Shown here: positions 4,173 to 27,326 of the stretch, one piece after another | Layout: each line of letters starts with the position of its first letter | Numbering within the stretch: the stretch's first letter is position 1 | Source: Deltaproteobacteria bacterium | GTDB lineage: Bacteria > Desulfobacterota > Desulfobacteria > Desulfobacterales > JAFDMD01 | Reading direction: 5' to 3' | Length of the DNA: 52,012 nucleotides | Assembly (NCBI GenBank): GCA_019306185.1 | Contig: JAFDMD010000016.1 | Span: 1 to 52,012, forward strand | Position numbers and translations under genes: made by a program | Notes under the pieces: generated by a model | What the model was told of the DNA's origin: nothing | The model's database searches: none | What the model saw: only the letters and a program-made list of their open reading frames with translations

Positions 4173-5966
4173 ATGTTAAACTCTCTTAAAATTAATGAAA
4201 TAGCCGCTTCAATTCAAAATAAAAACCTTGCGGTTTTTTGCGGGGCGGGAATATCGGTAAATTCCGGCGTTCCAAGCGTTGTAAAAATTGTAAATTATAT
4301 ATTAAGACAATTAGAGGTAGAAGAAGAGGATATAAAATCTCTTGTAAATGAAAAGAATTTAAATAGTCCGTTTAAGTTTGCTTTTGAAATGTTTATAGAG
4401 CAACTTTTGCAAGCCTGCAAAGAAAAAAGTTTATTTGAGCTGTTTGAAATTTATAATACAAAAAATCTTGAACCGAATAATAATCATATATTTTTTGCAA
4501 AGCTTGCCAAGCAAGGATTATTAAAAATTATTTTTACTACAAATTTCGATACTCTTATTGAAAAGGCTCTTAAAAAAGAGGACGTTGCATACAGAGTAAT
4601 TTATCAAAGTAAAGATTTTGAAAAGATAAATGAAGAGCCGAATAAAGTTAAAATTATAAAACTTCACGGCGATTATGGAGACGGAAGCGAGCATTATAAA
4701 AAAAGCATTGTTTCTACAATAGAAAAAATATCTCGGGAAAATCAAAAATATAAACAGGATAATTTTATAAATTATCTTTTTTCAAAAGGAAAACATAAAG
4801 AGGTTTTAATTTTAGGCTATAGCTGTTCGGATCAACTTGATATAACTCCGCAAATAGAATTAATAGATAAAAATTTAAAGCGGGTATTTTTTATTCAACA
4901 TTCGGACAATAAAGAAAAGATTGAATCTATACAAAAAGAGGAAAGCAAAAACCCTTTTGAAAAATTTAATAAGAGTCATCGAATATATTGCAATACAGAT
5001 AACATAATTTCCGCTTTATGGAAGCGGATAATAAAAGAACCTCTGCCGTTATCGGATAATAACAAGATTGAAACAAAGGAAGCAAAGCCGAACTGGCAAA
5101 AAGCAATAGAAAACTGGAAACGGAATATTCATAGTAATAATTATGTTGCCGGATGGATATTTGATGGTTTGGGGGCTTATAAGGAAGCTAAAAAATATTT
5201 TGAGAGCGCGCTTGTCATTTTTAAAAAGATATACGGAGAGGAACATCCGGAGGTGGCAAAGTATTTAAACAATATCGGCGGGGCATTGAAAGAATTAGGG
5301 GAATATAAAAAGGCAATAGAAGCTTTAGAAAAAGCGCTTGATATAGATAAAAAGGTTTACGGAGAGGAACATCTGAATGTAGCGAGAGACTTAAACAATA
5401 TCGGCGAGGCGTTAAGAGAATCAGGAGAGTATAAGAAGGGAATAGAATCTTTAGAAAAATATAAAAAGGCGATAAGCTATTATGAGAAAGCGCTTAATAT
5501 TTATAAAAAGGTTTACGGAGAGGAACATCCTGATATAGCAACAAATTTAAACAATATCGGCGCGGTATTGGAAGCATTAGGGGAATATGAAAAAGCGATA
5601 GAATTTTTAGAAAAGGCGCTTAATATTTATAAAAAGATTTACGGAGAGGAATATCCTGATATAGCAACAAACTTAAACAATATCGGCGCGGTATTAAGAA
5701 AATTAGAGAAATATGATGAGGCAATAGAATATTTAGAAAAAGCGCTTGATATAGATAAAAAGGTTTACGGAGAGGAACATCCGAATATAGCGAGAACCTT
5801 AAACAATATCGGCATGGTATGGTTTAAATTAGAGGAATATAAAGAAGCGCTTGGATATTTGGAAGAATCTTTAAAAATTTGTATGCGGTTTTTGGGAGAA
5901 AATCATCCCGATACAAAGAATGTAAAAAAAGGTATAGGCATTGTTAAACAAAAGCTTAATAATTAA
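4173..5966 (+). CDS. SIR2-like (SIR2_2 family) domain protein fused to a C-terminal kinesin-light-chain-type TPR array
   Basis: N-terminal ~300 aa carry the SIR2_2 hallmarks FCGAGISVNSGVPS, TTNFD (aa 122-126), KLHGD (aa 163-167) and GYSCSD (aa 215-220). The C-terminal half is six to seven 42-aa repeats with consensus YGEEHPxxAxxLNNIGxxLxxLGEYxKAIExLEKAL. Confidence 0.85.
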   Translation: MLNSLKINEIAASIQNKNLAVFCGAGISVNSGVPSVVKIVNYILRQLEVEEEDIKSLVNEKNLNSPFKFAFEMFIEQLLQACKEKSLFELFEIYNTKNLEPNNNHIFFAKLAKQGLLKIIFTTNFDTLIEKALKKEDVAYRVIYQSKDFEKINEEPNKVKIIKLHGDYGDGSEHYKKSIVSTIEKISRENQKYKQDNFINYLFSKGKHKEVLILGYSCSDQLDITPQIELIDKNLKRVFFIQHSDNKEKIESIQKEESKNPFEKFNKSHRIYCNTDNIISALWKRIIKEPLPLSDNNKIETKEAKPNWQKAIENWKRNIHSNNYVAGWIFDGLGAYKEAKKYFESALVIFKKIYGEEHPEVAKYLNNIGGALKELGEYKKAIEALEKALDIDKKVYGEEHLNVARDLNNIGEALRESGEYKKGIESLEKYKKAISYYEKALNIYKKVYGEEHPDIATNLNNIGAVLEALGEYEKAIEFLEKALNIYKKIYGEEYPDIATNLNNIGAVLRKLEKYDEAIEYLEKALDIDKKVYGEEHPNIARTLNNIGMVWFKLEEYKEALGYLEESLKICMRFLGENHPDTKNVKKGIGIVKQKLNN

Positions 5967-6160
5967 AAACCCTTGCGCAACCTCCTATTTTGCTTATTTT
6001 ATGCGTTATGCTTAACTTTTAATCCTCGAAATACTTTGATTATTCCTACGGTTAAAGTTTTTATGCGTCTTGAAAAGAATAAACAAAATTTTTAATAAAC
6101 GTCTTTTTAATTAAGGGATTTCTCCTCGCTACGCTCGTCGAAATGACAGGTAAAAATAAA
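5967..6160. repeat. Duplicated 3' flank (TTAATCCTCGAAATAC family element plus one GGGATTTCTCC...CGAAATGACAGG unit)
   Basis: Aligns almost base-for-base with 9209-9392, downstream of the second TPR gene. The TTAATCCTCGAAATAC part also recurs at 11271-11335. Confidence 0.85.
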
Positions 6161-6253
6161 GTCCGCCGAAATGAACATGCACAAAATAAAGCTCGTTGCA
6201 ATTAAAAAATTAAAAGCCGTTTTTTTCAACTAACGGCATTTTTCATAATTTTC

Positions 6254-6282
6254 TTGCCGTTTTTATCTAAATTTATAATAAA
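6254..6282 (+). promoter_or_regulatory. Conserved upstream motif TTGCCGTTTTTATCTAAATTTATAATAAA (copy 2, upstream of the NTPase-TPR operon)
   Basis: Same 29-nt block as 4100-4128. In both copies a further ACCGG follows, 4 nt after the block at 4132-4136 and 9 nt after it at 6291-6295. Confidence 0.35.
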
Positions 6283-6366
6283 TAGGCTTAACCGGATTTT
6301 TACAATAAAATTTGTTAACATAAAGAATAATTGCAAAAAAGCATATGAATAGAAAAGAGGTTAATT

Positions 6367-7698
6367 ATGGTTAGTAAAAAAGCTAAAACAATAGACGAAA
6401 TAGACGCGGCGGTTCAATATAAGGTTCCGGTAACGCCGGATAATATATTTTTTACCGATTTAAGCAAAGCAAGAGGAAGTTTTAAAGAGAGCAGGCTTTT
6501 AAAAAGCCTTAAACTTAACGCAAAAAAACCTTATAGAATGGTTGGAGACCCGGAGAATAAAAAGCTTATATTTCTTGCCGGAATGTACGGCAGCGGCAAA
6601 ACTTCAGAGTTAAAGAGAATTGCACAAGAGATTGAAAATCCGGAAAGTTATTTGTGTATTACATGCAGTTTGGATACGGACCTTGATATGAATAATATCG
6701 ATTTTGTAGATATTCTGATATTTATGGCGGAAGGTTTGTTAAAAAGGATGGAACAAAAAAAAATCCGGATCAATACCGATATTATAGATTCTTTAAATAG
6801 CTGGTTTACGGAAAGAATAAAAGAGACAAACAGGGTTGCGGAACATTCCGCAAAAATAGAGACCGAAATATCCGCCGGAGCGAGCTTATTAAGTTTAATA
6901 AAAATTATAGGAAGCTTAAAAAACGCGTTTGCCTATAATACATCTTATGCGGAAAAGGCAAGAGTAGTGTTTAGGGATAATTTTTCGGACCTTAAGGATA
7001 AGTTTAACGAGTTTATAGGAGAAACCGTTTTAAAGATACAAAGCAAGAAAATAGCAAAAGATATTCTTTTTATAATAGACGGAATAGAAAAGGTTCAAAC
7101 TGCAAAATTGCGTGAAAAAATAATAAAAAAGGACGGTTTAAGAATAAAGGCTATAAAAACGAATATGCTAATTACAATGCCTATAGAGCTTCATCATCAG
7201 GTAAGTAATTTGCGGGCAATAGAGCCGGAAATAATAAGGTTCCCTTTTATAAAGCTTATGGATAAAAGAACCGGCGAGCCTATAACAGAGAATATAGAAA
7301 TTTTAAAAGAATATGTATATAAGCGGGTTGATAAATCCCTTTTTGAAAATGAAGATTTGGTAAAAGATATAATTTTAACAAGCGGAGGTTCGCCTCGGGA
7401 ACTTTTGCGCATTATCAAGACTATGGGCGTAGAGCTTGACCCGGAAGCGACCGTATTGAACAGACAGGCTTTTAATGACGCGGTTAAATATTTGGGCAAT
7501 TTATATGCTACGGGCATTACGCAAGAGGAGTTTGATTTAATAAACAAGGTTGTAAACAGCAAAGGGGAAATACCTTTTAGCAAAACTTTGCAAGGGCTTT
7601 TGTCAAGGGTTATTATAATGGAATATAACGACGGAACATATAAAAAGGTTAATCCTATTATAGAGGCTTCCGCGATATACAAAAAATATGTTAATTAA
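6367..7698 (+). CDS. P-loop NTPase (KAP/STAND/AAA+-like, family unassigned)
   Basis: Walker A LAGMYGSGKTSE, a ~155-aa insertion, Walker B-like DILFIIDGIEK, and a sensor/lid-like SGGSPRELLRII followed by a helical C-terminal region. GAGG lies 8 nt upstream of the ATG. Its stop overlaps the next gene by 11 nt. Confidence 0.75.
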   Translation: MVSKKAKTIDEIDAAVQYKVPVTPDNIFFTDLSKARGSFKESRLLKSLKLNAKKPYRMVGDPENKKLIFLAGMYGSGKTSELKRIAQEIENPESYLCITCSLDTDLDMNNIDFVDILIFMAEGLLKRMEQKKIRINTDIIDSLNSWFTERIKETNRVAEHSAKIETEISAGASLLSLIKIIGSLKNAFAYNTSYAEKARVVFRDNFSDLKDKFNEFIGETVLKIQSKKIAKDILFIIDGIEKVQTAKLREKIIKKDGLRIKAIKTNMLITMPIELHHQVSNLRAIEPEIIRFPFIKLMDKRTGEPITENIEILKEYVYKRVDKSLFENEDLVKDIILTSGGSPRELLRIIKTMGVELDPEATVLNRQAFNDAVKYLGNLYATGITQEEFDLINKVVNSKGEIPFSKTLQGLLSRVIIMEYNDGTYKKVNPIIEASAIYKKYVN

Positions 7699-9208
7699 AG
7701 ATAATAAGTATAAAAAAAATCTTAACCGGCTTTTAAGAACAGTAGCAAGCGGGCTATTTGAATTTATAATATTGCGCTACAACATTACGGAACTGTTTAA
7801 CGAGGCGGTTACATCCTTAAAAAACGCTTATCCTAATAGAGAATGCAAAATATTTTCCGCAAAGGATATGGATTATAATCTGTTTATGGAAAAGGCAAGG
7901 GAGGCGGAGAGCGGGTTTTTAATAATAGAGGATTTTGAACATTTATTGGATAAGCAGGATATATACGATATAAATTATAGAAGAGACCTTATAGCGCAAA
8001 AAGATATTGCTTTAATAGTTTGCATTCCGGCAGAAGATGAACATCTTTTAAAGCTTATGAAAAAAATGCCGGATTTTTGGTCTTTTCAAAGCCTTACAAT
8101 AAAACTTACCGCTCAAATATCAAAAACCGAATCAAAACAGGATAATTTTGCCTCGGAACTTAAAGAAAACAGAAAAACCTCCTCTTTTACCTCCTTAACA
8201 ATAAGCGCAAAACTTGCGGAATTGAAAAGATTGGAAAAAAGAATTAAAGAGCCGGAAGCCCAAAAAAGCTTTAATCTTTTATCCTCCTTATACTCTCAGA
8301 TATTTACCCTTGCCGAAGAGCTTGCGGAGTATAAAAAGGGTTTGGAATATGCGAATAAATATCTTCAAATTGCAAAAGCCGCAAATAACCCTTCCGAAAT
8401 TTCAAAAGCTTTAAATAAGGCGGGAGAATTTAATATATATTTGGGTAATTATTCCAAAGGGTTAAAGTTATGCGAAAAAGCATTGAAATCGGATATTGAA
8501 AATTTAGGCAATGAGCATCCTAATACTGCAGTAAGCTTAAACAATATCGGCGGGGCATTGCAATATTTAGGCGAATATAAGCGTGCGGTAGAGCATTATG
8601 AGAAGGCGCTTGATATAGATAAGAAGGTTTACGGAGAGGAGCATCCGAACGTTGCTATTCGTTTAAGCAATATCGGCGGGTCGTTGCAATATTTAGGGGA
8701 ATATAAGCGGGCGATAGAGCATTATGAGCAAGCGCTTGATATAGATAAGAAGGTTTACGGAGAGGAACATCCGAAAGTTGCTACAAGCTTAAATAATATT
8801 GGCGGGGCGTTGCAATCTTTAGGGGAATATAAGAAAGCGATAAGGTATTATAAGCAAGCGTTTGATATAGATAAGAAGGTTTACGGAGAGGAACATCCGA
8901 AAGTTGCTACAAGCTTAAATAATATTGGCGGGGCGTTGCAATCTTTAGGGGAATATAAGAAAGCGATAGAGCATTATGAGCAAGCGCTTGATATAGATAA
9001 GAAGGTTTACGGAGAGGAACATCCGAAAGTTGCTATTCGTTTAAACAATATCGGCGTGGCGTTGCAATATTTAGGTAAATATAAAGAAGCGCTTGGATAT
9101 TGTGAAAAAGCTTTAAAAATTCGTATGCGGCTTTTGGGAGAAAATCATCCCGATACAAAGAATGTAAAAGTAGGTATAGGCATTATTAAACAAAAGCTTA
9201 ATAATTAA
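7688..9208 (+). CDS. TPR-repeat protein (unassigned ~170-aa N-terminal domain plus seven to eight kinesin-light-chain-type TPR units)
   Basis: 506-aa ORF whose ATG lies inside the last codons of the NTPase gene. The TPR consensus is the same as in 4173-5966 and the C-terminal cap is nearly identical (LGENHPDTKNVKxGIGIxKQKLNN). It contains a perfect 105-nt duplication at a 126-nt period (8738-8842 = 8864-8968). Confidence 0.85.
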   Translation: MLIKDNKYKKNLNRLLRTVASGLFEFIILRYNITELFNEAVTSLKNAYPNRECKIFSAKDMDYNLFMEKAREAESGFLIIEDFEHLLDKQDIYDINYRRDLIAQKDIALIVCIPAEDEHLLKLMKKMPDFWSFQSLTIKLTAQISKTESKQDNFASELKENRKTSSFTSLTISAKLAELKRLEKRIKEPEAQKSFNLLSSLYSQIFTLAEELAEYKKGLEYANKYLQIAKAANNPSEISKALNKAGEFNIYLGNYSKGLKLCEKALKSDIENLGNEHPNTAVSLNNIGGALQYLGEYKRAVEHYEKALDIDKKVYGEEHPNVAIRLSNIGGSLQYLGEYKRAIEHYEQALDIDKKVYGEEHPKVATSLNNIGGALQSLGEYKKAIRYYKQAFDIDKKVYGEEHPKVATSLNNIGGALQSLGEYKKAIEHYEQALDIDKKVYGEEHPKVAIRLNNIGVALQYLGKYKEALGYCEKALKIRMRLLGENHPDTKNVKVGIGIIKQKLNN

Positions 9209-23547: not shown

Positions 23548-24645
23548 TTATTGTCCTAATAGGTTTTTCATTATATCGTCCGTTATAATTTGAGCGGCGT
23601 TTGTTTTTCCGAACTTTTTTGCTTCTTTTCCTATTTCTATTAGTTTGTCCGGATTTGCTCCGTAATATTTAATTTTTTCCGCGGTTTTTTTTCCGTCAAA
23701 ATCCTTTTCGGATATTACTTCGCATGCTCCGGCTTTTTCCAATATTCTTGCGTTTAGCTCTTGATGTCCGTCCGCGGCGTAAGGAAACGGAATATATATG
23801 GCGGCTTTCCCCAACGCCGTTATTTCCGATATTGTAGTAGCGCCGGCTCTTGCTATTATAATATCCGCTTTTTGATATGCGGACGCCATATCGTCGATAA
23901 ACGCGCAAACCGTATTTTGTATCTTATAATTTAAATATTCTTCTTTTACTTTTTTCAAATCTTTAACGCCGCTTTGATGTATAAATCTTATTTTTGCTTT
24001 ATTTTCTATATGATTAAGAGAAGCCATAACCGCTTTGTTAATGCCCGAAGCGCCTTGACTTCCGCCTATTATTAAAACCGTAAAACTTTTATCGTCCGAT
24101 ATTGTTTTCGTTTTTTCCGCTTTAATTATTTCTTTTCTTAACGGGTTGCCCGTATGCAACGTTTTTTTATTATTAAAATATTTTTTGCTATCCTTAAAAG
24201 CTATATATACTCGGTTCGCTATTTTGGATAAATACCTGTTTGTAATTCCGGGCATTATATTCTGTTCGCAAATAGCGATTTTTATTCCGAATAATCTGCC
24301 GGCTATTAATACCGGAGCGGAAGAGTAGCTTCCGACTCCTATGATTAAATTCGGAAGGAATTTTTTTACTATTATTGACGCCCTAAATACCGAAATCGGA
24401 AGTTTTATCAACGCTTTTATTTTCTTAAAAATTGTCGTCCCTTTTAATTTGGGGGTTTTTATGCTTTTTAATTTAAATCCTTTTTGAGATAATATTTTTT
24501 TTTCAAAATCATTGCCTATGCTTACAAATAGTATTTCGGCATTTCGGCTTTGTTTTATAATTTCTTCGGCTATAGCTATTGCCGGAAACAGATGCCCGCC
24601 GGTAACTCCTCCGGCTATTATTATTTTATTTGTTAAATTAGGCAT
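23548..24645 (-). CDS. murG: Undecaprenyl-PP-MurNAc-pentapeptide UDP-GlcNAc transferase
   Basis: GT28 motifs (GGVTGGHLFPAIAIAEE; ARAGATTISEITALGKAAIYIPFPYAADGHQ). Confidence 0.96.
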   Translation of the reverse strand: MPNLTNKIIIAGGVTGGHLFPAIAIAEEIIKQSRNAEILFVSIGNDFEKKILSQKGFKLKSIKTPKLKGTTIFKKIKALIKLPISVFRASIIVKKFLPNLIIGVGSYSSAPVLIAGRLFGIKIAICEQNIMPGITNRYLSKIANRVYIAFKDSKKYFNNKKTLHTGNPLRKEIIKAEKTKTISDDKSFTVLIIGGSQGASGINKAVMASLNHIENKAKIRFIHQSGVKDLKKVKEEYLNYKIQNTVCAFIDDMASAYQKADIIIARAGATTISEITALGKAAIYIPFPYAADGHQELNARILEKAGACEVISEKDFDGKKTAEKIKYYGANPDKLIEIGKEAKKFGKTNAAQIITDDIMKNLLGQ

Positions 24646-25310
24646 AAGCTTGTCCCATGTTTAAAAGGGTCGGATATTGAATCCATTCTTTTCCTAACAA
24701 TTTTTTTCCGTTTGATTTTTTATTTCTTTTTATGCCGTCCGCTCCCCATGTTCCCCATTGCTTAAAGAAAAAAGCTTTATTTTGCAATTCGCATTCTTGT
24801 AAGATTTAATTTGCCTATGTCTTCAAGCATCGGTTCTACGGATATAAATTTAATCGAAGCTTTTATTTTTTTTAATATTTCTATTCTCGGCATCCCGTCT
24901 TTTTTATTTTCCGCTGTTATTCCAAGCCATATATTCGGGGGAATTTTTTTATTTTTTAAGTATTGTTCCATTCTTTCGGCTCGTTTTGTAAGTATTTGGT
25001 ATGTATGGCGCGGGGTCTTTTCCATAACTTCAAATACTCTGTTTAAAAATAATTCCGGTATATCTTTATGAAACAGGTCGCTCATGGAATTAACAAAATA
25101 TGTCGTAGGTTTCTTTTTTTTAATCGGTTTTGATAATCTTTGAGGCATCAAGGTTAATGCGAAACCGTTTTCATAGCTTACGACTCCTATTGCCTGAAGT
25201 CTTTTTGCCATAACTTCGGCATAGCAGTTTTGGCATCCCGCAGATATTTTAGAACATCCTACCGTAGGATTCCATGTTTCCGCCGTCCATTCTATTTTTG
25301 TATTTGCCAT
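24638..25310 (-). pseudogene. Decayed phage Gp37/Gp68 (DUF5131) family gene: internal deletion plus frameshift
   Basis: The N-terminal part (MANTKIEWTAETWNPTVGCSKISAGCQNCYAE...ISVEPML) stops at 24777. The family's C-terminus (LQECELQNKAFFFKQWGTWGADGIKRNKKSNGKKLLGKEWIQYP) continues in the +1 frame down to a TAA at 24638-24640. The conserved WVIVGGESG..ARP core expected between them is absent. Confidence 0.7.
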
Positions 25311-25346
25311 TTTCTTAACCGATTTCACTATTCAAAATAATTTTTA

Positions 25347-25946
25347 TTATGACTGTCCTTGAATGAATTCAATCCGCTTAACATCTCTGGTATTTAAGTA
25401 AACCCCTTTGCCATCAATAGTGTATAAAGCTTCTAAATTTTCATCGACTCTTCTGGCGCTGCTTAAAAGAAAATCCTGATTCTCATTATTAGGATTATAG
25501 GTATAATTAGATATCCATCCGAGATAGATGCAGTTGTCATTTAAAAAGACAACTGCCCAATCCGTATTTTCTTTTTGATTAATTTTTACCCAAATTGACT
25601 GTGGGTCCGGCGCCATAGATCTAAAAGAATTATATTTAAGCGAAAGCTTAAATCGAATCATATATAAATATATTCTAATAATTCCCAACAGTAACCCCGA
25701 GCCGAATAAAGCAATTATAAAACGAAATGAAGGGAAGCTTTCACTGTTACTGTTCAGGGCAAAACTAAAAAATTTTTCGTCAACCCATCTAATGACGCTT
25801 AAGATGATTATACCCCAAATTATACTCCACGTTATTTGGACAAACTGCCCCCGTTCCTTGACAGGATATTTTGCATTATATAACTCCGAAGCTATAAAAC
25901 CGGGAGCAAGATAAAGAATAAATTCTATTAAATCTTTTATAGGCAT
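25347..25946 (-). CDS. Hypothetical membrane protein (three predicted TM helices plus a ~100-aa soluble C-terminal domain)
   Basis: 199-aa ORF. Hydrophobic segments are IEFILYLAPGFIASELY, ITWSIIWGIIILSVIRWV and FRFIIALFGSGLLLGIIRIYLYMI, followed by a region that looks beta-rich. It resembles DUF6338-type proteins from memory only (unverified). Confidence 0.6.
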   Translation of the reverse strand: MPIKDLIEFILYLAPGFIASELYNAKYPVKERGQFVQITWSIIWGIIILSVIRWVDEKFFSFALNSNSESFPSFRFIIALFGSGLLLGIIRIYLYMIRFKLSLKYNSFRSMAPDPQSIWVKINQKENTDWAVVFLNDNCIYLGWISNYTYNPNNENQDFLLSSARRVDENLEALYTIDGKGVYLNTRDVKRIEFIQGQS

Positions 25947-25949
25947 ATT

Positions 25950-26141
25950 TTACTCATTGCTTGAGGCGTGATTTGTATTTCCTTGTTGGCTGTTCGTAGC
26001 CGGATTGCCGTTTGCATTCTCTTGCCGAGCTTCCGGTCTGGATGTAGGAGCGGCATTTGCAGGCGCAGGACGTTCATGAGTATAGGATTTTCTATAATCG
26101 TCATTTATGGTTAATGTTACAGGCTTTTGTTTTTTAGTCAT
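25950..26141 (-). CDS. Small low-complexity (Ala/Pro/Asn/Gln/Thr-rich) hypothetical protein
   Basis: 63-aa ORF with an AAAGGAGAA ribosome-binding site about 6 nt upstream of its ATG. Its stop lies 3 nt before the ATG of the membrane protein gene. It is visibly more GC-rich than the surrounding DNA (by eye). Confidence 0.45.
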   Translation of the reverse strand: MTKKQKPVTLTINDDYRKSYTHERPAPANAAPTSRPEARQENANGNPATNSQQGNTNHASSNE

Positions 26142-26210
26142 TTTGTTCTCCTTTCATATAGTTTGAAAAAAATTTTAACTATCTTCTATATACAGCGTTT
26201 TCTATAATAA

Positions 26211-27326
26211 CTAAACCGGTTTTTCGTTTTTTCCTATATTAGCCAAGATGCCTAAAGCCGCGGAACTTACCAAAAGAGAGGTGCCTCCATAGCTTAAAAG
26301 CGGAAGCGTCAATCCTTTTGTAGGCAAAAGCCCCATTGCGACTCCTATATTTATACATACCTGAAGCCCGAATGATGTCGTGATTCCTACGGCAAGAAGG
26401 GTTCCGAATAAATCCTTTGCATTTTTAGATATTATTATGCCTCTGAATATTATTATCATGTAGAGCGAAATTATAAATAACGTTCCCAAAAGTCCTAATT
26501 CTTCTCCTATAACGGAGAATATAAAATCGGTATGAGCTTCCGGCAGATAAAAAAGTTTCTGATAACCGTTTCCGATTCCGGCGCCGAATATTCCTCCTGT
26601 TCCAAAAGCCATTAGAGAATGGACTGCCTGATAACCTTCGTCCGTAGCGTACTTCCAAGGATCAAGATAGCTTAATATTCTTTCGGCTCTATAGGTTGCG
26701 CTGAATATAAGGTTGTATATTATAGGAATAAAAAGGAGTAATGCGCTGCTTAAATGTAATATTCTAACTCCCGCAACAAACATCATTATTCCTACTATGC
26801 AGGCTAATATTAAGGCGCTTCCCAAATCCGGCTGGTTTAATATTAAGCATAAAAATCCGGCTAATATTACTATATGCGGGAAAAAACCTATGGAAAATTT
26901 TTTAATGTTTTCATGTTTTTTGCTTAAAGAATATGCCATGTAGATTATTAATCCGATTTTTGCCGCTTCCGACGGTTGAAAATGTAAAGCCCCTATTTTA
27001 AGCCATCTTGTAGCGCCGCCTTCGGTAATTCCAAAGCCGAAATATATCAGCGAAAGAAGAAGCGCCGAACCGAACAATCCCAAATAAGCGATTTTTTTAA
27101 AAAAATTATAGGAAATGTTAGAACATATTAAAAAACCGGCTATGCCGAATAACGCAAAAGCCGTCTGTTTTTTTAAAAAAAACATAGCGTCGGCCCGCTT
27201 TGCCGCCGCCGTGGCAGAGCTGGCGCTATATATCATTAATACCCCGATCGCTATTAAGAGCAGAAGCGGGATTATAATGAAAGGATCATAACGTAAGCCT
27301 TTGCTATTTTTTTCCCTCTTATTCAT
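26211..27326 (-). CDS. ftsW: Peptidoglycan glycosyltransferase FtsW (SEDS family)
   Basis: A ~10-TM SEDS protein (PEAHTDFIFSVIGEELG; LTLPLLSYGGTSL) in the dcw position after murD. Confidence 0.93.
   Translation of the reverse strand: MNKREKNSKGLRYDPFIIIPLLLLIAIGVLMIYSASSATAAAKRADAMFFLKKQTAFALFGIAGFLICSNISYNFFKKIAYLGLFGSALLLSLIYFGFGITEGGATRWLKIGALHFQPSEAAKIGLIIYMAYSLSKKHENIKKFSIGFFPHIVILAGFLCLILNQPDLGSALILACIVGIMMFVAGVRILHLSSALLLFIPIIYNLIFSATYRAERILSYLDPWKYATDEGYQAVHSLMAFGTGGIFGAGIGNGYQKLFYLPEAHTDFIFSVIGEELGLLGTLFIISLYMIIIFRGIIISKNAKDLFGTLLAVGITTSFGLQVCINIGVAMGLLPTKGLTLPLLSYGGTSLLVSSAALGILANIGKNEKPV

Follow-up and report, generated by a model that had tools for sequence, protein, structure and literature searches.

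Between ftsW and murG, the division and cell wall (dcw) cluster on a contig from an uncultured Desulfobacterales lineage (GenBank assembly GCA_019306185.1, contig JAFDMD010000016.1, positions 1-52,012; hereafter the window) carries genes that are absent from this position in most bacteria. We consider this insert to be probably a long-resident, repeatedly rearranged and now eroding accessory island at a permissive dcw junction. As a textbook example of conserved gene order, the dcw cluster normally has ftsW and murG in very tight adjacency. In the window, the cluster lies on the minus strand in the order murF, mraY, murD, ftsW, a 1,565-nt stretch, murG, murC, murB and ftsQ. Three co-oriented genes fill the ~1.57 kb that separates ftsW from murG: a small open reading frame (ORF63), a DUF6338 gene and a broken DUF5131 gene. 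In the direction of transcription, the features of the junction are:

26211-27326, minus strand: ftsW, the upstream flank (Pfam FTSW_RODA_SPOVE, E 9e-110); FtsW is 88-94% identical in the related loci L002 and L001.
26142-26210, minus strand: spacer of 69 nt between ftsW and ORF63, with an AAAGGAG Shine-Dalgarno sequence for ORF63.
25950-26141, minus strand: ORF63 (63 aa), a small hydrophilic protein and the first gene of the cassette.
25347-25946, minus strand: DUF6338 protein of 199 aa (Pfam accession PF19865), 3 nt after the ORF63 stop.
24777-25310, minus strand: N-terminal fragment of DUF5131 (183-aa ORF when read from 25328), matching Pfam PF07505 positions 1-175 of 243, E 4e-70.
24798/24799, minus strand: site of an 83-nt deletion in DUF5131, located by alignment to the related locus L016.
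24638-24798, minus strand: C-terminal remnant of DUF5131 in another frame (49-aa ORF at 24638-24787), matching PF07505 positions 207-243, E 7e-9.
24638-24645, minus strand: 8-nt DUF5131/murG overlap, ATGCCTAA, with the murG start codon within the last DUF5131 codons.
23548-24645, minus strand: murG, the downstream flank (Pfam Glyco_transf_28 and Glyco_tran_28_C).

An earlier description made from the letters alone, without database searches (the sequence-only reading), had proposed that three same-strand ORFs separate ftsW from murG and that the other dcw junctions are tight. Gene calls and profile searches agree on the three ORFs, and recomputing the remaining dcw junctions in the window gives overlaps of up to 31 nt and gaps of up to 135 nt. 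The gap between the DUF6338 gene and the DUF5131 start measures 18-36 nt; the likely DUF5131 start is the ATG at 25310, chosen after the L016 gene call. The insert proteins were run against Pfam, NCBIfam, PHROG and PADLOC profiles. No further copy of any insert gene is present elsewhere in the window.

We located relatives by genome scan and by protein searches with MurG. The lineage is sparsely sampled, with MurG relatives at 90, 85, 84 and 67% identity and the next at 53% or below, and all related sequences are metagenome-assembled genome (MAG) or metagenome contigs. Six lineage loci were compared (MurG identity 67-100%), comprising the window and the following five:

L016, MurG ~100% identical: ORF63, DUF6338 and an intact DUF5131 of 251 aa.
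L109, MurG 85%: the 3' part of DUF5131 intact, its stop overlapping the murG start.
L001, MurG 90%: ftsW, a split TcmP gene, an intact DUF5131, a 110-nt spacer and murG.
L002, MurG 84%: ftsW, a shortened TcmP gene, a frameshifted DUF5131, remnants of ORF63 and DUF6338, and murG.
L017, MurG 67%: DUF5131, a 130-nt spacer and murG, on a contig that begins within DUF5131.

DUF5131 lies immediately 5' of murG in all six lineage loci. Each of four contigs (the window, L016, L001 and L002) spans the whole insert together with both ftsW and murG. The gene that precedes DUF5131 varies: the TcmP gene, damaged in L001 (split) and in L002 (internal deletion), occupies the slot taken in the window by the ORF63-DUF6338 cassette. 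The sequence-only reading had named, as the alternative to an insertion, an ancestral lineage-specific component made of the same three genes. Part of this alternative holds, as all sampled members of the lineage have DUF5131 beside murG; the three-gene set itself is not conserved, with TcmP in L001 and L002.

Outside the lineage, the two flanking genes are usually neighbours. ftsW overlaps murG in four loci whose MurG is 49-50% identical, and in nine loci of other phyla the FtsW and MurG matches are 8-138 nt apart. These 13 more distant loci bear out the sequence-only view that ftsW and murG adjoin elsewhere and that the cargo is accessory. In the sister clade, other cargo fills the junction. 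On the P0014 contig (nearest outgroup, MurG 53%), 3.7 kb between ftsW and murG encode an AAA_15/21 ATPase, DUF4276, a GNAT acetyltransferase and several DUF2442/DUF4160 genes. In L018 (1-1330; MurG 53%, sister clade), DUF3795, DUF4160, DUF2442 and a decayed, frameshifted second DUF3795 lie directly 5' of murG, on a contig that ends before any ftsW. The contexts of P0014 and of a further contig, P0123 (both JGI 3300072015), are known through Pfam labels only. We found nothing comparable in the literature on insertions into dcw clusters.

L020 (714-2865) encodes a MurG paralogue, 52% identical, outside dcw, with a radical SAM/SPASM gene 5' and AMP-binding and TraB-family genes 3'. The MurG paralogue of P0016 was tried as a comparison locus and set aside as uninformative, being outside dcw.

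Divergence from the relatives dates DUF5131 with the operon. By Nei-Gojobori estimates of synonymous (dS) and nonsynonymous (dN) divergence, the dS of DUF5131 is 0.38 against L001 (flanking dcw genes 0.27-0.48), 0.39 against L002 (flanking dcw genes 0.48-0.67) and 1.06 against L017 (flanking dcw genes 1.1-1.4). Over all pairs, the dN/dS of DUF5131 (0.13-0.21) is indistinguishable from that of MurG (0.12-0.20). A dS like that of the flanks, together with a purifying dN/dS, indicates that DUF5131 is not a recent arrival: it has descended with the operon, constrained, from a time before these genomes split. TcmP has likewise been constrained for most of its history (dN/dS 0.23-0.31, L001 versus L002). 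The remnants of ORF63 and DUF6338 in L002 give a dS of 0.15-0.28 over few codons, below the flanks at 0.48-0.67, and this hints at a later exchange of the ORF63-DUF6338 cassette.

The composition of the insert had been described, by eye, as foreign-looking, and this description did not survive measurement. Sliding-window GC content of the insert is 0.33-0.35, equal to its neighbours, and GC at third codon positions (GC3) is 0.31-0.33, inside the range of the 29 other genes analysed (0.255-0.388). The high GC of ORF63 (0.44) arises at codon positions 1 and 2 from its content of Ala, Pro, Arg and Gly. Codon-usage fit is the best in the window for the two DUF5131 fragments (0.27 and 0.25; host genes 0.13-0.23) and the lowest in the window for DUF6338 (0.056). 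DUF6338 is thus the only weakly atypical gene, and its poor codon fit hints weakly at a later arrival.

No integrase or transposase is encoded in the insert, and profile searches recover only three gene families there. Credible flanking repeats or a tRNA-type target are absent, the repeats found being short and chance-like, and across genomes there is no nucleotide conservation beyond the cassette coding regions that would mark conserved ends. The insert has no Rfam match. A prophage, insertion sequence or transposon remnant was considered and rejected for want of an integrase or transposase and of credible terminal or target-site repeats. An integron cassette or attC array was also rejected: the spacers measure 69, 3 and 18-36 nt, followed by an 8-nt overlap, and no inverted repeat suited to an attC site (over ~55 nt, imperfect) was found, with no attC-specific model run.

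These results bear on the simplest alternative, a recent horizontal insertion of phage or mobile DNA that is now decaying. The sequence-only reading had called DUF5131 a family of phage, mobile and defence contexts, and this is correct: the window gene matches PHROG 2045, seven viral contigs carry the family, and its fragments match PADLOC PDC-M30B (E 2e-79) and PDC-M41B (E 6e-76). Occurrence in phages, the breakage of DUF5131 in the window, the poor codon fit of DUF6338 and the low dS of the L002 cassette remnants would all fit a recent insertion. Such an event is at odds, however, with the presence of DUF5131 in six of six loci at a dS equal to that of dcw up to >1 and a dN/dS of 0.13-0.21, with its host-like GC, GC3 and codon use, with an insert lacking integrase, transposase, credible repeats and a tRNA-type target, and with the absence of DUF6338 from phage, plasmid and viral collections. 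We regard this explanation as improbable. It is largely refuted for DUF5131 and possible for ORF63-DUF6338 only. Of the foreign insertion originally proposed, what stands is that the cargo is accessory and absent from this junction in most bacteria; what falls is its foreignness in the case of DUF5131, which is old, has host-like codons and has co-diverged with dcw.

DUF5131 had also been described as degraded, and comparison with L016 shows how. Against PF07505 (cutoff 28.9 bits), the N-terminal fragment reaches 236 bits and the C-terminal one 36 bits. With the two halves of the profile match on two frames and the middle gone, they represent one gene that has suffered an internal loss and a frameshift. 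The window therefore has no full-length DUF5131 frame: profile positions 176-206 are gone and what follows is out of frame. Over 4,002 nt (window 28800-24799), L016 and the window are 100% identical; L016 then has 83 extra nt (L016 4740-4822), beyond which the two are 99.7% identical over 782 nt. The 83 nt lost from the window encode a conserved segment, GIDWVIVGGESG... (IDWVIVGGESG...). Downstream of the loss, the window frame terminates at a premature TAA (24777-24779), and the C-terminal remnant is 96% identical to residues 197-251 of the L016 protein by tblastn. An N-terminal three-cysteine cluster (Cx6CxxC, GCSKISAGCQNCYA) lies within the 183-aa ORF and is kept in L001, L002 and L016. DUF5131 (Gp37/Gp68) belongs to the radical-SAM superfamily, in which it is catalogued as a subgroup whose chemistry is unknown (PMC9477430). 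No solved structure exists for DUF5131 or DUF6338.

No repeats flank the 83-nt deletion. It appears to be genuine, recent and polymorphic within the population. Before the indel, L016 and the window are 100% identical; from it onwards (L016 4740-5604, window 24017-24798) they differ at 2 of 782 nt, with L016 stopping inside murG. This pattern suggests strain-level heterogeneity, or recombination at exactly that point. In L002, the DUF5131 frameshift (5880-5960) sits in a run of ten A, where L016 reads AAAAAAAAGAAA.

An assembly or binning artefact, such as a chimeric contig or collapsed strain variation, could be suspected from the use of MAG contigs and from the 83-nt indel and the L016 end inside murG, both of which point to strain heterogeneity. 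We hold it to be extremely improbable. The same architecture occurs in independent NCBI, JGI and Logan assemblies, frames and junctions are coherent, and ftsW and murG flank the insert on four single contigs.

Elsewhere, DUF5131 usually follows TcmP. A metagenome scan returned 80 DUF5131 loci (34-67% identity). Among the 52 with at least 1.2 kb upstream, 40 have a TcmP-family gene directly 5' of DUF5131 (21 a PDC-M30A-type TcmP and 19 a PDC-M41A-type relative), most of them overlapping the DUF5131 start. The usual unit is thus TcmP followed by DUF5131. The TcmP genes directly 5' of DUF5131 in L001 and L002 belong to the same kind (NCBIfam TIGR04474; PADLOC PDC-M30A, E 5e-74). TcmP is absent throughout the window. 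FtsW, MurG and DUF6338 were near DUF5131 in none of the 80 metagenome loci.

With respect to the PADLOC systems PDC-M30 and PDC-M41, the window DUF5131 corresponds to the B component, and L001 and L002 keep the TcmP-DUF5131 order. The window differs from these systems in having no TcmP and a truncated DUF5131, and the module is embedded in dcw, as in none of the 80 other loci. PDC systems are unpublished, unvalidated defence candidates (PMC11811056). The literature on DUF5131, DUF6338, TcmP and PDC-M30 yielded passing mentions only, and an experimental PDC paper was not found.

The constraint on DUF5131 raises the question of whether the gene has become a dcw component. Under this explanation, DUF5131 would be domesticated, with an envelope or division role tied to murG and independent of TcmP, and the deletion would be a deleterious or compensated strain variant. 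Several observations are in its favour. First, DUF5131 is constrained as strongly as MurG over a dS >1. Second, it is always immediately 5' of murG, and in the window, L016 and L109 its stop and the murG start overlap, which suggests translational coupling. Finally, it has stayed intact in L016, which has no TcmP, and in L001, whose TcmP is split. The inactivation in the window, and possibly in L002, argues against it, as do sister clades without DUF5131 that carry other cargo or none. Moreover, TcmP is constrained too, so the pair probably worked as the usual two-gene module, and the other contexts of DUF5131 give no pointer to cell-wall chemistry. On balance, domestication is unlikely.

The remaining two genes of the insert, ORF63 and DUF6338, form a conserved two-gene unit that is apparently intact in the window. 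DUF6338 scores 37.7 bits (cutoff 26.5), with residues 7-197 aligned to model positions 9-202 of 205. The window protein is thus near the full length of the Pfam model, and its 98 homologues in several phyla (39-69% identity) are of the same size, ~200 aa. ORF63 has no Pfam, NCBIfam, PHROG or PADLOC match. ORF63-like genes of 56-57 aa end 3-5 nt 5' of DUF6338 in four independent contexts: an Aminicenantes chromosome (L025), L026/L027, L024 and the P0123 contig. ORF63 is 35-44% identical to the small proteins of L024, L025 and L026, and the relatives share an N-terminal motif, INEDxRKSxTHERPxPxNxAPTxR, followed by a polar low-complexity tail. Four further relatives of 56-62 aa are present in a library of 1.84 billion representative proteins. 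The Shine-Dalgarno sequence of ORF63 is the strongest in the region.

Nothing links this cassette to DUF5131 as a recurrent pair; that pairing was examined and rejected, with DUF6338 in none of the 80 DUF5131 loci and DUF5131 in none of the four DUF6338 contexts. DUF6338 was found in none of the phage, plasmid and viral collections. On the P0123 contig, the closest DUF6338 relative (69%) occurs twice, co-oriented and packed in an operon with thiolase, ChsH2, alcohol dehydrogenase, SDR and enoyl-CoA hydratase genes, and this double copy suggests that the cassette tends to sit within operons.

An AlphaFold2 model of DUF6338 (predicted local distance difference test score 87.7) has three transmembrane helices and a C-terminal barrel. 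The top 50 Foldseek matches in the PDB are all Sm/LSm proteins (E ~3e-3, target-normalised template-modelling score 0.49-0.78). The barrel, comprising the C-terminal ~75 residues, superposes on archaeal and eukaryotic Sm proteins at a root-mean-square deviation of ~2-6 Å and a Foldseek probability of 1.0. In this model, the C-terminal domain has the predicted five-stranded bent beta-barrel of Sm-like proteins, and loop charges place it probably in the cytoplasm. The barrel differs from Sm, LSm and Hfq in its sequence (8-21% identical) and in its tether of three transmembrane helices, and the model is of a monomer only. Three features are new for DUF6338, and we found them described nowhere: its constant upstream partner of 56-63 aa, the predicted combination of three transmembrane helices with an Sm-like barrel, and the dcw location.

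DUF6338 also shows weak similarity to Csx27, a membrane protein accessory to type VI-B CRISPR systems: NCBIfam NF040557 gives 18.8 bits (cutoff 65), and PADLOC gives E 7e-4 along with a 'tm_4' match. This similarity could be remote homology or mere transmembrane-segment composition. Membership in Csx27 was rejected, with a score far below the cutoff and no cas genes seen among the window ORFs examined. Searches of Pfam and PADLOC place neither ORF63 nor DUF6338 in a toxin-antitoxin family; the pair resembles type II toxin-antitoxin systems in its tightly coupled two-gene layout alone.

An active anti-phage or abortive-infection island wired to the division genes, acting through the DUF5131 system or through ORF63-DUF6338 as a membrane effector or toxin-antitoxin pair, would account for the matches of DUF5131 and TcmP to PDC-M30/PDC-M41 candidates and for the AAA_15/21 ATPase, DUF4276 and DUF4160/DUF2442 pairs at the sister clade junction. 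The tight coupling of ORF63 to a gene for a membrane protein and the weak Csx27 matches would also fit. In the window, however, TcmP is missing and DUF5131 truncated, and the PDC systems are themselves unvalidated candidates. DUF6338 has no significant PADLOC match, with Csx27 at 18.8 bits against 65, and elsewhere the cassette sits among metabolic or miscellaneous genes, not in defence islands. We consider such an island quite improbable. The suggestion of the sequence-only reading that phage exclusion or a toxin-like membrane protein is tied to division is accordingly unsupported in the window.

Comparison of the junctions indicates how the island may have been reshaped. The window carries the cassette where L001 and L002 have TcmP, and it shares with them the flanks on either side: the first ~25 nt of the post-ftsW spacer (26186-26210), beyond which the alleles diverge, and ~10 nt just 5' of the DUF5131 ATG. 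Behind DUF5131, L002 has ~8 initial codons of a murG of the window type and then a copy of the post-ftsW spacer (the 14-nt string TTATCATAGAAAAC), an ORF63 remnant with 2 extra A, a DUF6338 remnant without its first ~115 codons, and murG. The L002 murG draws its start (ATGACAAATACAAA...) from the opening codons of a second DUF5131 copy, and window positions 25320-25297 are present twice in L002. From these junction sequences, we infer that the L002 layout is the remainder of a tandem duplication of the whole island plus deletions.

The 5' ends of murG are of three different kinds across the loci. After a spacer, the MurG N-terminus reads MKKYKSVK... in L001 and MKHIKT... in L017. That spacer has been lost from the window, L016 and L109, where the murG ATG lies inside the 3' end of DUF5131, as ATGCCTAA or ATGCCTGA. 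As murG starts are built of island DNA, a new murG start has been captured at least twice. In the window, the DUF5131 frame ends 132 nt before the murG ATG, and this early stop would have abolished any DUF5131-murG translational coupling of the L016 type.

There are no terminator-like sites on the minus strand within the insert, and promoter-like matches there are at shuffled-background level. Its short spacers, the lack of terminators and the murG start within DUF5131 make it likely that the insert is read through from dcw promoters.

A history of long residence and erosion would combine these observations as follows. A TcmP-DUF5131 pair may have entered the ftsW-murG junction before the sampled lineage diversified. 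DUF5131 would then have passed down vertically beside murG under purifying selection, its TcmP partner being damaged (L001, L002) or replaced (the window, L016), and the window copy would have just been inactivated by the 83-nt deletion. The ORF63-DUF6338 cassette, self-contained, translationally coupled and unrelated to DUF5131, now sits in the TcmP slot. All island genes would be expressed by dcw read-through. Repeated deletions and a tandem duplication may have reshaped the island, each time remaking the murG start, and the position within an essential operon may shield the cargo from clean loss.

Several points weigh against this account. DUF5131 has long been constrained and is intact in L016, L001 and, to the extent covered by their short contigs, L109 and L017, and 'eroding cargo' may understate a lineage-specific function. 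The frameshift in L002 might reflect slippage or a mistake in sequencing or assembly and not true decay, and the 83-nt deletion is known from one assembly only. The tandem duplication is itself a reconstruction from junction sequences. The independent lineages sampled number only five, all of them MAG or metagenome contigs.

A related possibility is that the junction is a recombination hot spot for promoter-less, hitch-hiking cassettes, with DUF5131 kept for a murG-coupled function and ORF63-DUF6338 representing a new, membrane-anchored Sm-ring class that spreads into operons. The idea of spreading into operons comes from the two copies inside the P0123 fatty-acid-type operon. We judge this combination unlikely.

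The island that we favour as long-resident and eroding resembles lineage-specific accessory genes of dcw clusters and the cargo of chromosomal defence and toxin-antitoxin hot spots in being co-oriented, in occupying a fixed intergenic site and in varying in content between relatives. It differs in lying within an essential, packed operon, without an integrase, a tRNA or an attC-sized spacer, and with a murG start derived from cargo. The junction has carried cargo for long (dS >1) and has swapped its contents. It thus offers a natural system for how essential operons tolerate cargo and for whether such a site shelters selfish or defence-type genes. DUF5131 can, moreover, remain under selection where no intact TcmP accompanies it. 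The junction also provides leads on uncharacterised families: DUF5131, and DUF6338 with its small upstream partner and predicted membrane-tethered Sm-like domain.

Away from the dcw cluster, positions 4173-9208 of the window (plus strand) encode a SIR2_2 and TPR protein (4173-5966, GC 0.31), a 443-aa protein without a Pfam match (6367-7698) and a TPR protein (7688-9208), a three-gene layout that is defence-like.

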